From sequence record PX880102.1: a DNA stretch of 64,000 bases; one strand, given 5' to 3'. Origin of the DNA: a phage. The notes under the pieces were generated by a model. It was not told the origin of the DNA, made no database searches, and saw only the letters and a program-made list of their open reading frames with translations. Below are positions 1-16,983 of the stretch, one piece after another. Position numbers and translations under genes: made by a program. Positions within the stretch are counted from its first letter, which is position 1. The number at the start of each line of letters is the position of its first letter.

Positions 1-2314
<2,314 letters not shown>

Positions 2315-12742: not shown

Positions 12743-13021
12743 TCAAAATGTAATTTCTAACCAATCACCATCACGCTGATCACTATTGACTTTAAAGCTA
12801 AATCCTTCTTTTCTCAGCCAATCACCAATTTCTTCAGTAATCAATTTATCACGAGCAATACAATAATAATTAAAATGTGTTTTACCTTGTTCAGCTGCTT
12901 TATTAGCAAGTTCCGAAAAATCTTTAATAAAACACTCTAGCTTAAACTGTTTACTTTTAAGTGCTTTTTCACGCAATTGATTAGCAAAAGATTCATTTTC
13001 ATAAAGATCATACTGTTCCAT
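12743..13021 (-). CDS. Small hypothetical protein (92 aa), T4 24.2 position
   Basis: ORF in compact minus-strand array between rnlB and hoc. Confidence 0.55.
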   Translation of the reverse strand: MEQYDLYENESFANQLREKALKSKQFKLECFIKDFSELANKAAEQGKTHFNYYCIARDKLITEEIGDWLRKEGFSFKVNSDQRDGDWLEITF

Positions 13022-13223
13022 TTTTCACCTTTTTATTAATATGCCTTTTTCTATAAACAACTTTTTCTCGAGTTTCAAATTTATTCTTAGCAGTCATAGC
13101 TCGAGCCCATAATACAGCCACTTCCTTTGCCTGTAAGTTTAATTCACGAGCAATTTCAATGAATGACTTTCCAGACTCATGAAGAGTAAACACCACAACC
13201 TCAGTTCGCATAATCAATCTCAT
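13008..13223 (-). CDS. Small hypothetical protein (71 aa) with helix-turn-helix-like segment, T4 24.3 position
   Basis: ORF overlapping downstream gene start; HTH-like SFIEIARELNLQAKEV. Confidence 0.5.
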   Translation of the reverse strand: MRLIMRTEVVVFTLHESGKSFIEIARELNLQAKEVAVLWARAMTAKNKFETREKVVYRKRHINKKVKNGTV

Positions 13224-13312: not shown

Positions 13313-14731
13313 TTATGGATAGGTATAGATGATACCAGTTTCTAAAGCAGTTTTATGAATGATGTATCCATTACGTGATTCTTGAACATCAACTTCTGGA
13401 TAGTCTTTCATCATCTTCTGAAGAGTGTAACGATGCAGGTAGTATTTACTATCTGGATCTTCAGTTTTCCAATCTTTACCTTCTTCAGTCATTTTTTGGA
13501 TTTCATCCATAACCCACCAACCGCACCAGATATAAGCCGAAGTACGATGTGGAAGAGGATGAACATAAGGTAATTCACCTTCTGGTTCCGGAGCAACTTT
13601 ATCAGTTACCTGAACTTGACCCGTTGCTTTAACTGTTTTACTATCATAGTCAGTTGCTGTAACGACAGCAGTAACTTCAATAGTTTGACTTCCAATAGAT
13701 GAGGTGTCAACGGTGTATACGTTAGTTGACCCTTCCACAGGAGAAGAATCTTTCTTCCATGAATAAGTAATTTGTGCTGCTTCAGGTGCTCCAGTAACAT
13801 TAGCTGTAAATGTAGCCGAAGCATCTTGCTGAACGTTAATAGAAGGAGGAGTCAATGCAACCTGTGGATTCATTGTCTTCTTATTAACCGTCAGTGACAC
13901 TTCGTTGGAAGTAACTTCCTTTTCATTGTAATTTTCTGCAGTTACTTGCGCTACGCATTTAATTCTTTTTACTCCACTTGTAGTTGGAGTATAGTTAAAT
14001 GTAGAGTTAGTTTCTCCACCAATTTGAGAATCATCTACATACCACTTATATGTAGCAGACGCTCCATCAGGTTGAGAAACCAAGGCAGCAGTAAATTGAA
14101 CTGGGGTTCCAATTACTCCAGCTGAAGGACTATCAGGAGTTACAGCTAAAGTAGTCGCTTGGGTTTTCTTGTTAACAGTCAGTGACACTTCATTAGAAGT
14201 AACGCTCAATGTATCATAATCAGTTGCGGTTACTTGAGCTATGCACTTGATTTTTTTAACTCCGCTTGTGGCAGGAGTGTAATTGAATGTAGCAGAAGTT
14301 GCTTCGCTTACAGGAGAACCGTCAACGTGCCATTGATACGTAGCGTTTGCACCTGATGGCTGTGAAGCTAAGGCAGCAGTAAATTGGACAGCTGTTCCGA
14401 TTACTCCAGCATCAGGGCTATCAGGAGTTACGGCTAATGTAGTTGTCTGTGTTTTATTTTTGACTGTGATAGTTGTCGTAGTTTCTGCTGTTTCAGGTTC
14501 AGATTCTGGAACTGTATTTGTTGCAACGACTTTAATAGTCTTTTGACCGGCAGGTCCTTTTAATACATAATCAAAAGTTGCTTCAGCTCCATCTTGTGGA
14601 ACATCGTCTACAGTCCAAGCATAGGTAATAGTTCCACCTCCAGTTTCACCATTGGGTGTAGCAGTAAACTGCTTAGTTTCATCAATAACCCCTGTTGGTG
14701 TTTTAGGAGTTATATCAACTGTAAAAGCCAT
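13313..14731 (-). CDS. hoc: Hoc outer capsid decoration protein (472 aa) with four tandem Ig-like domains
   Basis: Tandem ~96 aa Ig-like repeats, capsid-binding C-terminus, position as T4 hoc; longer than T4 Hoc (376 aa as recalled). Confidence 0.88.
   Translation of the reverse strand: MAFTVDITPKTPTGVIDETKQFTATPNGETGGGTITYAWTVDDVPQDGAEATFDYVLKGPAGQKTIKVVATNTVPESEPETAETTTTITVKNKTQTTTLAVTPDSPDAGVIGTAVQFTAALASQPSGANATYQWHVDGSPVSEATSATFNYTPATSGVKKIKCIAQVTATDYDTLSVTSNEVSLTVNKKTQATTLAVTPDSPSAGVIGTPVQFTAALVSQPDGASATYKWYVDDSQIGGETNSTFNYTPTTSGVKRIKCVAQVTAENYNEKEVTSNEVSLTVNKKTMNPQVALTPPSINVQQDASATFTANVTGAPEAAQITYSWKKDSSPVEGSTNVYTVDTSSIGSQTIEVTAVVTATDYDSKTVKATGQVQVTDKVAPEPEGELPYVHPLPHRTSAYIWCGWWVMDEIQKMTEEGKDWKTEDPDSKYYLHRYTLQKMMKDYPEVDVQESRNGYIIHKTALETGIIYTYP
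13886..14461 (-). repeat. Tandem in-frame duplication of a 288 bp Ig-like domain unit within hoc
   Basis: Two adjacent 96-codon units (Hoc residues 91-186 and 187-282), ~75 percent identical at protein level with near-identical DNA stretches. Confidence 0.8.
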
Positions 14732-14740
14732 AAGTTATCC

Positions 14741-15421
14741 TTATTTTAATGTTACGAAAGAAGAATTACGTGTTTCACGAATTAGAACTGATCCGTCGCG
14801 ATTAATGTAATAAATTAAGCTAAACAAAGTTTGATGCGCAGACGCATGTTCAAAACTGGTTGGGCGAGATTTCCAATCCGGAGTTTCAGCAATCCACTGG
14901 TAAATCCACCAAGGAACAGTACAGAATCCTGGATTTTTTCCAATCAGCTGAAGATTCGGACTAAAGTTTTCCGGAAGAGTAAATACAGACGGCTTTTCAG
15001 ATTCAATAATCTCAGCTACAGCCTGTTCGAATTTTTCTTCAACAAAAGGAGTATCTTCAATCAAAACATCGGTATTTTCAGGAATTTTATCCGTTTCTAC
15101 TACTTCAATTTTAATGTCAGATTTAACCGGAGAATCAATCAGAAGTGCTGCCTCTGGATTGACTTCTTCATCGTCATATTTTAATCCGTCTGCGGCATCA
15201 GCAGCATCAATTAAGTCTTTAATAGATAACCCATCAGTCTCTGGCATAGGTTCACTAGCGAGCTTCTGGAGGGCTTCTTCAATATCATTAACGATATTAT
15301 CAAAAGATTTGTTCTTTTTGACCTTTATACCAAACTGTTCAGCATATTCAGCTAATTTAGCTTTAGCTTCTTTATTATCATCAAGAGCCTTCAACTCTGC
15401 AATATAATCTTTATCTATCAT
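14741..15421 (-). CDS. inh: Inh, inhibitor of prohead protease (226 aa)
   Basis: 226 aa, position between hoc and uvsW as in T4. Confidence 0.75.
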   Translation of the reverse strand: MIDKDYIAELKALDDNKEAKAKLAEYAEQFGIKVKKNKSFDNIVNDIEEALQKLASEPMPETDGLSIKDLIDAADAADGLKYDDEEVNPEAALLIDSPVKSDIKIEVVETDKIPENTDVLIEDTPFVEEKFEQAVAEIIESEKPSVFTLPENFSPNLQLIGKNPGFCTVPWWIYQWIAETPDWKSRPTSFEHASAHQTLFSLIYYINRDGSVLIRETRNSSFVTLK

Positions 15422-15471: not shown

Positions 15472-16983
15472 ATGACTGACATTAAAGTACATTTTTATGA
15501 TTTTAGTCACGTGAGAATTGATTGTGAAGAAAGTACATTTCATGAACTCCGTGATTTCTTTAGCTTTGAAGCTGATGGTTATCGTTTTAATCCGAAGTAC
15601 AAATATGGTCACTGGGATGGACGAATCCGTCTTTTAGATTATAATCGCCTTCTTCCGTTTGGCTTAGTCGGGCAAATTAAAAAGTTCTGTGATAACTTTG
15701 GCTATAAAGCCTGGATTGACCCACAGATTAACGAAAAAGAAGAATTATCAAGAAAAGATTTTGATGAATGGCTTTCTAAATTAGAAATCTATTCAGGAAA
15801 TAAAAGAATTGAACCGCACTGGTATCAAAAAGATGCAGTGTTCGAAGGATTAGTTAATCGTCGTAGAATTCTTAATCTTCCAACATCCGCAGGTAAATCT
15901 TTAATTCAAGCTTTGCTTGCTCGGTATTATTTGGAAAATTATGAAGGTAAAATTCTTATCATTGTTCCAACAACTGCTCTGACAGCTCAGATGGCTGATG
16001 ACTTTGTTGACTATCGTTTATTCAGTCATGCAATGATAAAGAAAATCGGCGGTGGAGCATCAAAAGATGATAAATATAAAAATGATGCACCGGTCGTTGT
16101 TGGTACATGGCAAACTGTAGTAAAACAACCGAAAGAATGGTTCTCACAGTTTGGAATGATGATGAATGATGAATGCCATCTTGCTACAGGAAAAAGTATT
16201 TCATCTATCATATCAGGTTTAAATAACTGTATGTTTAAATTTGGTTTGTCTGGTTCATTGCGCGATGGCAAAGCTAATATCATGCAGTATGTTGGAATGT
16301 TTGGTGAAATATTTAAGCCAGTAACGACTTCTAAATTAATGGAAGATGGACAAGTAACTGAGTTAAAAATTAATAGCATTTTTCTTCGCTATCCCGATGA
16401 GTTCACTACTAAATTAAAGGGAAAAACTTACCAAGAAGAAATAAAAATTATTACTGGGCTCAGTAAAAGAAATAAATGGATCGCTAAATTAGCTATTAAG
16501 CTTGCGCAAAAAGATGAAAACGCTTTTGTCATGTTTAAACACGTATCGCACGGTAAAGCTATTTTCGATTTAATTAAAAATGAATACGATAAAGTTTATT
16601 ACGTATCAGGGGAAGTTGATACCGAAACCCGCAATATAATGAAAACCTTAGCTGAAAACGGTAAAGGAATAATTATAGTAGCTAGTTATGGTGTGTTTTC
16701 TACTGGTATTTCAGTTAAAAATCTGCATCACGTTGTTTTAGCACACGGTGTTAAATCTAAAATTATTGTATTGCAAACAATAGGTCGCGTATTACGTAAG
16801 CATGGTTCTAAAACAATCGCAACAGTCTGGGACCTCATCGATGATTGTGGTGTTAAGCCAAAATCTGCTAATACGAAAAAGAAATACGTTCATTTGAACT
16901 ATCTTTTAAAACACGGCATTGATCGTATTCAGCGCTACGCAGATGAAAAATTTAATTACGTAATGAAAACAGTTAATTTATAA
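15472..16983 (+). CDS. uvsW: UvsW SF2 helicase (503 aa)
   Basis: Walker A LPTSAGKS, DECH box; length about that of T4 UvsW; late promoter upstream. Confidence 0.92.
   Translation: MTDIKVHFYDFSHVRIDCEESTFHELRDFFSFEADGYRFNPKYKYGHWDGRIRLLDYNRLLPFGLVGQIKKFCDNFGYKAWIDPQINEKEELSRKDFDEWLSKLEIYSGNKRIEPHWYQKDAVFEGLVNRRRILNLPTSAGKSLIQALLARYYLENYEGKILIIVPTTALTAQMADDFVDYRLFSHAMIKKIGGGASKDDKYKNDAPVVVGTWQTVVKQPKEWFSQFGMMMNDECHLATGKSISSIISGLNNCMFKFGLSGSLRDGKANIMQYVGMFGEIFKPVTTSKLMEDGQVTELKINSIFLRYPDEFTTKLKGKTYQEEIKIITGLSKRNKWIAKLAIKLAQKDENAFVMFKHVSHGKAIFDLIKNEYDKVYYVSGEVDTETRNIMKTLAENGKGIIIVASYGVFSTGISVKNLHHVVLAHGVKSKIIVLQTIGRVLRKHGSKTIATVWDLIDDCGVKPKSANTKKKYVHLNYLLKHGIDRIQRYADEKFNYVMKTVNL

Follow-up and report, generated by a model that had tools for sequence, protein, structure and literature searches.

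Hoc with a diverged tandem pair of Ig-like modules: a common long allele class in Tequatrovirus phages

We analyzed the hoc gene carried by a 64,000-nucleotide stretch of phage DNA (sequence record PX880102.1, hereafter the window), and we argue, with a probability of roughly 0.6 for the account as a whole, that it is an ordinary long allele in which two ancient paralogous Ig-like modules, designated unit A and unit B, stand in tandem, the outcome of an old duplication followed by loss of one or the other unit elsewhere and by occasional exchange, and that its product would form a longer fibre. Hoc is the head fibre of T4, is implicated in mucus and cell-surface adherence and is widely used as a display scaffold. 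The number of its Ig-like domains sets the reach of the fibre and of N-terminal fusions, and with it the count of variable binding surfaces. The gene, its modules and its two neighbours are located as follows.

13313..14731, (-) strand: hoc coding sequence, from the ORF list (472 codons plus stop)
14462..14731, (-) strand: Ig-like domain 1 (D1), aa 1-90; aligns to T4 Hoc 1-90; AlphaFold2 strands 4-91, pLDDT 83-94
14174..14461, (-) strand: repeat unit A, aa 91-186, extra relative to T4, as judged from dS, clade, Pfam and AlphaFold2
13886..14173, (-) strand: repeat unit B, aa 187-282, orthologue of T4 Hoc domain 2 (D2), as judged from dS, clade, Pfam and AlphaFold2
13598..13885, (-) strand: Ig-like domain 3 (D3) in T4 numbering, aa 283-378, the fourth Ig-like domain here; aligns to T4 187-282; AlphaFold2 strands 290-376
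13316..13597, (-) strand: C-terminal capsid-binding domain, aa 379-472; aligns to T4 Hoc 283-376 with dN 0.009
14741..15421, (-) strand: inh (prohead protease inhibitor), upstream neighbour; a 226-aa ORF matching T4 inh in position and length, which fixes the synteny
13008..13223, (-) strand: gene 24.3 homologue, downstream neighbour; a 71-aa ORF placed as 24.3 is in T4, AR1, PP01 and RB27

The first-pass annotation had called the product Hoc, and this identification was borne out by phmmer, in which the protein matched the T4 Hoc chain 5vf3_Z (PDB 5VF3, chain Z, 376 aa) with E = 1.6e-219; the megablast matches of the gene are annotated as hoc or as Hoc-like head decoration. The gene order 24 - rnlB - 24.2 - 24.3 - hoc - inh - uvsW is the same in the window as in T4 (NC_000866), segE excepted: this homing-endonuclease gene, which T4 has between inh and uvsW, is absent from the window, where inh reaches 15421 and uvsW begins at 15472. 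Two short ORFs inside hoc, at 13382-13573 (+) and 13606-13824 (-), were rejected as by-products of the ORF list with no support.

The segment 13886-14461 is exactly hoc codons 91-282, and its two halves align without a gap, with 69 of 96 residues and 208 of 288 nucleotides identical. The proposal that residues 91-186 and 187-282 form an in-frame direct repeat with identity at the DNA level thus stood, the identity being 72% at both levels. By codon position 1, 2 and 3 the identical sites number 77, 82 and 49, each out of 96. A separate search for direct repeats returned a 288-nt repeat of 72% identity at a spacing of 288 nt. Nucleotide shuffles gave an expectation of 75 +/- 7 identical sites with a maximum of 104 in 20,000 (z = 18), codon shuffles gave 87 +/- 7 with a maximum of 118 in 20,000 trials, and the neighbouring Ig domain D3 shows an ungapped identity of just 35-38% with unit A or B. 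This confirmed that the similarity of the adjacent, in-frame units is far above chance. Tandem Repeats Finder gave no report on the repeat, even with a minimum score of 30, because the two copies are too diverged for its threshold.

In an AlphaFold2 model built on an alignment of 29 relatives, the chain folds into four beta-sandwiches that span roughly 4-91, 99-187, 194-283 and 290-376 and score a pLDDT of 83-96 by block. The strands of unit A occupy 99-187 (pLDDT 86-95) and those of unit B 194-283 (pLDDT 89-96), the two blocks being split in the model by an NKKT linker at 187-190; the C-terminal domain, 379-472, was poorly modelled (pLDDT 29-65). The domain boundary prediction that the first-pass annotation had proposed as a check therefore places the unit edges at the modelled sandwich edges, and the boundaries of the repeat match domain boundaries. 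Pfam matched Ig_2, PKD_3 and BiPBP_C to unit A (121-179), PKD to unit B (195-267), and I-set and Ig_3 to domain 3, the fourth Ig-like domain (289-374); the PKD, Ig_2, I-set and PKD_3 matches exceed their cut-offs. The best Foldseek matches in the PDB were structures of four consecutive Ig domains, namely Dscam1, sidekick and ICAM-5 D1-D4, and RB49 Hoc was not among the top 50, which were mostly four-domain Ig proteins. T4 Hoc has three Ig-like domains, and its capsid-binding domain comprises residues 281-376 (PMC10385173). Hoc of the window consists of four Ig-like domains and a capsid-binding domain, as against three and one in T4.

T4 hoc likewise lies between inh and 24.3, and in its product (376 aa; PDB 5VF3, 8T1X and others) D1, D3 and the capsid-binding domain are collinear with those of the window protein, the C-terminal domain being nearly identical; T4 Hoc, however, has one D2-type module where the window protein has two, and unit A is without a T4 counterpart. 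The alignment falls into two pieces, T4 1-113 with window 1-113 and T4 97-376 with window 193-472, and therefore exactly one 96-aa unit is in excess over T4. The length of 472 aa, some 96 aa above T4 Hoc, as the first-pass annotation had put it, agrees with the 376 aa of NC_000866; the excess is also, as proposed, a whole Ig-like module, T4 having three Ig-like domains and not an equal number. The two units are not equivalent in this comparison. Unit B differs from T4 domain 2 by a dS of 0.37, and orthologous window and T4 segments give 0.27 (D1), 0.49 (D3) and 0.23 (C-terminal domain), whereas unit A differs from T4 domain 2 by a saturated dS of 1.10. Since only the value between unit B and T4 falls in the orthologous range, unit B is the orthologue of T4 domain 2 and unit A the extra one. 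The single module of T4 is itself a mosaic at informative sites, with an a-type head, a b-type middle and an a-type tail.

The window gene represents a common allele class and no peculiarity of the window genome. Megablast with the gene returned 659 phage records, nearly all of Tequatrovirus; in a sample of 60, there were 20 full-length single-piece matches of 1419-1425 nt (AR1, wV7, PP01, RB27, Sf21, Sf23 and others) and 31 T4-type genes of 1131-1137 nt (T6, RB6, RB33, RB55, HY01 and others), the remainder being partial. When unit A alone was used in blastn, it matched 891 places in 617 records, and in a sample of 40 records it had one place in 24, two in 13 and three in 3. This proxy for unit number was checked in EC101, where three places correspond to a hoc of 1707 nt and 568 aa, and in vB_SsoM_113, where one place corresponds to a hoc of 1131 nt and 376 aa. 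Both samples were spaced evenly along the hit lists and give estimates and not a full census. Among the top 120 protein clusters from 895 hits, which are ranked by score and are not a frequency sample, 81 were of 376-378 aa, 30 of 468-472 aa and 9 of 567-570 aa. About one third of some 650 Tequatrovirus records share the A-B layout. The 12 kb around the gene are 96-97% identical to wV7-like and AR1-like phages, all of them carriers of long alleles. The long alleles of AR1, wV7, PP01, RB27, Sf21 and ECp13 (472-474 aa) have the same D1-A-B-D3-C-terminal arrangement as the window and differ from it only as alleles do, with whole-gene DNA identity of 90-95% and protein identity of 88-96%; whole-gene DNA identity to any database allele is at most about 95%, and the best match varies by segment. 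Three-unit alleles (568-570 aa: UGKSEcP1/2 and EC101) share the module family and the flanking domains and have one further 96-aa module.

From 17 alleles we took 24 units, and their synonymous distances defined two deep clades, with single-unit alleles in either. The first units of all long alleles group in clade A, as do the sole D2 units of RB33, ATK48 and L005; the second units of the long alleles fall in clade B along with the single units of T4, RB55, RB6 and L004. An intermediate position is taken by slur07, HY01 and the third unit of UGKSEcP1. The proportion of synonymous differences (pS) was mostly 0.11-0.39 within clades and 0.38-0.64 between them. Units A and B were not resolved when the 96-aa sequences were clustered by protein identity, but were resolved by synonymous distances together with informative-site patterns. 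Units A and B are mutually closest when set against D1, D3 and outgroup modules, yet each also occurs alone in single-unit alleles. At the 80 sites at which A and B of the window differ, many units are mosaic and share a breakpoint between middle and tail, located before the last ~18 sites: T4 has a b-type middle and an a-type tail, RB6 is b/b, RB33 a/b and L005 a/a, and the middle unit of UGKSEcP1 is again a hybrid of b-type middle and a-type tail. At the protein level, the architecture aa-bb was found in 19 clusters and in the window protein, aa-ba in 8 and aa-ab in 1; further to these there were four single-unit types and three-unit types, including aa-ba-bb. The last of these and the single ab type are the reciprocal products that would be expected of one unequal crossover at the middle/tail junction between A-B arrays, and both were found. 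The closest DNA relative of unit A of the window (95.1%) is the sole D2 unit of a short allele (376 aa), that of Shigella phage vB_SsoM_113 (L037), and none of the long alleles matches it better, which points to a recent exchange of unit A between allele classes. Because of the mosaics, the reciprocal types and this short-allele relative, we conclude that modules and their segments change position and pass from allele to allele over evolutionary time.

The pair itself is old. Between A and B we obtained pS 0.60, dS 1.2 and dN 0.195, and a non-repeat control, D2 against D3, gave a pS of 0.62-0.64, indistinguishable from that of A against B; on these values the synonymous sites between the units are saturated, the pair is ancient, and its split is much older than the divergence of the window hoc from T4 hoc. 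In six long alleles compared (the window, ECp13, AR1, PP01, RB27 and an IMG/VR contig) the A-B DNA identity was 72-77% and pS 0.49-0.60, the five other than the window giving 75-77% and 0.49-0.57. Since pN/pS is 0.30 within clade A and 0.11 within clade B, both copies are under purifying selection; a pN/pS of 0.81 for D1 was discarded as unreliable, because of a 2-aa indel in the D1 of AR1 and an alignment anchored at the right-hand end only. An artefact of assembly or annotation, by which a repeat was mis-assembled or two ORFs were fused, has in its favour the general risk that repeats pose to assemblers and nothing more, and we give it practically no credence: mis-assembly of a repeat cannot yield copies that differ at 80 of 288 positions, the frame is open throughout, and the 1419-nt gene is found also in independent genomes from many laboratories. 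It is very improbable, too, that the repeat is a recent tandem duplication specific to this phage, unstable and highly recombinogenic, as the first-pass annotation had implied. The adjacency of the units, their shared frame, their equal length and their clear homology are what such an event would leave; against it stand the 72% DNA identity, the saturation of synonymous sites, a longest identical run of 17 nt, and the presence of the same diverged pair in AR1, wV7, PP01, RB27, ECp13 and hundreds more genomes. An event in this phage was thus not upheld, given the synonymous saturation and the A-B layout in about one third of Tequatrovirus genomes.

The suggestion of a recombinogenic, possibly unstable repeat is weak on the scale of laboratory time, in view of the 17-nt run and of purifying selection on both copies. 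That run is the longest identity between A and B in register or in any other, and homologous recombination in T4 was reportedly found by Singer et al. in 1982 to be efficient only from roughly 50 bp of homology. Rapid instability on laboratory time would be unlikely, and appreciable length heterogeneity in a lysate would not be expected, because the longest run is so short and because the diverged pair has persisted in many lineages. Copy-number change and shuffling of segments are visible only across the population, on evolutionary time.

As to how the array arose, we propose that one 96-aa Ig-like module was duplicated within hoc long ago to give the tandem paralogues A and B, that either unit was then lost repeatedly (A in T4, B in RB33-like alleles), and that head, middle and tail segments of the modules were swapped between units and alleles, presumably because conserved module ends now and then undergo unequal crossing-over and gene conversion in mixed infections. 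Alternatively, A and B may have diverged as alternative single-D2 alleles or in separate lineages and been stacked by an out-of-register crossover of co-infecting phages at conserved linkers or module ends, the one-unit state of T4 being then the ancestral one. We consider such stacking the less likely history. Pure A-type single units (L005, ATK48, vB_SsoM_113) and pure B-type ones (RB6, the middle segment of T4) are common, the nearest DNA relative of unit A is the only D2 unit of a short allele, and the three-unit alleles demonstrate that unequal exchange can add units. But stacking needs two alleles of the same locus to have reached synonymous saturation while the dS of D1, D3 and the C-terminal domain is merely 0.23-0.49, and the constant order of A and then B, which was found in all long alleles compared, fits one old array better than repeated stacking. 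We prefer old duplication and loss because it explains both the saturation between A and B, as against a dS of 0.2-0.5 in the flanks, and the invariant order. Gain in the window lineage and loss in that of T4 are not polarised by these data, since crossovers at module ends give symmetric products and A and B are without a rooting outgroup; trees of the flanking sequence are unsuited to this purpose, because the mosaic patterns show that recombination would confound them. More tentatively still, and compatible with no more than a minor share of our confidence, the D2-type modules might form a small cassette system, with a copy number of 1-3 and independently assorting middle and tail segments, in which selection by ligands on mucosal or bacterial surfaces, or by antibodies, would maintain a repertoire of capsid adhesin fibres at the level of the population. 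If this were true, unequal crossing-over and gene conversion, acting on tandem paralogues as well as among co-infecting phages, would reshuffle copy number and segments and so generate diversity; the extra domain would then be one of the resulting states and not neutral variation in length.

With regard to function, each gp23 hexamer of the mature head would carry a single, dispensable Hoc at its centre, held there by the C-terminal domain, a T4-like seating that is proposed because the capsid-binding domain is nearly identical to that of T4. The T4 fibre is reported to measure 180 A in length (PMC10385173). The extra module, on the preferred account of an ordinary long allele, would lengthen the flexible Ig-like fibre by one domain and add variable surface, potentially for weak binding to glycans or cell surfaces; we infer a longer adhesive fibre, consider it plausible that the extra domain alters the surface properties of the capsid, and expect that capsid assembly should be unaffected. 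T4 represents one of three common module counts in the genus, its single domain 2 corresponding to unit B, which is useful to bear in mind when T4 results on adhesion and display are transferred to AR1, wV7, PP01 and other T4-like phages of therapeutic use.

Gain and loss of whole Ig modules is recurrent and already known in the Hoc family. The number of Ig-like domains borne on the conserved capsid-binding domain ranges from 1 to 10 among Hoc homologues (PMC10385173); a two-Ig variant still binds MUC2, via domain 2, and the binding determinants sit in different Hoc domains depending on the phage (PMC11853027). PhiPNJ-9 (two Ig domains, without D3), Serratia phage Muldoon (10 Ig domains) and RB49 Hoc (PDB 3SHS) are far more diverged from the window protein and have gained or lost other modules. 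More distant Hoc genes in IMG/VR fall into equivalent length classes, at about 282, 377 and 472 aa. Among them, L012 (1501-2340) and L016 (1501-2331) are two-Ig forms of 279-282 aa, and L007 (1501-2907, 471 aa) has a tandem pair of a D3-type module with 71 of 90 residues identical at an offset of 94, so that this sister lineage has independently duplicated a different Hoc domain. In our literature search we found no explicit account of the 472-aa allele as a D2 duplication or of its A/B structure, only of variation in Ig number in general; PMC10580926 and PMC13390416 do not deal with the number of domains. As variable Ig number has already been published, the A/B structure refines what is known without adding a feature of a new kind, and it opens no new question, the allele class being abundant in databases. 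A 567-aa protein from a Logan assembly (P0037) has D1, an A-type unit, three far more diverged Ig units and a T4-like capsid-binding domain, a mosaic five-Ig architecture unlike the three-unit alleles, in which A and B are followed by a further unit.

Several records deserve mention beside these. In ES21, Paracelsus and vB_EcoM_LNA2 only the last 276 nt of hoc (13313-13588) match, at 96-98%, and megablast gave no match in the Ig region; the Ig string appears to have been replaced there and the anchor retained. Escherichia phage T4_ev151 (LR597660.1), whose name marks it as a T4 derivative, has three matches to unit A, which suggests a three-unit hoc unlike that of T4; the phage may have arisen by recombination in an evolution experiment with a phage cocktail. 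The T6 RefSeq record NC_054907.1 (L029) annotates hoc at 301-1432 as two overlapping CDS of 486 and 666 nt and not as one 1131-nt gene, which reflects either a frameshift or a sequencing error. Public Hoc orthologues also bear misleading product names, such as 'baseplate wedge subunit' (FP43), 'capsid whiskers protein' (BASEL phages), 'capsid vertex protein' (SP1) and 'endonuclease' (records filed under Shigella sonnei and Bacillus cereus).
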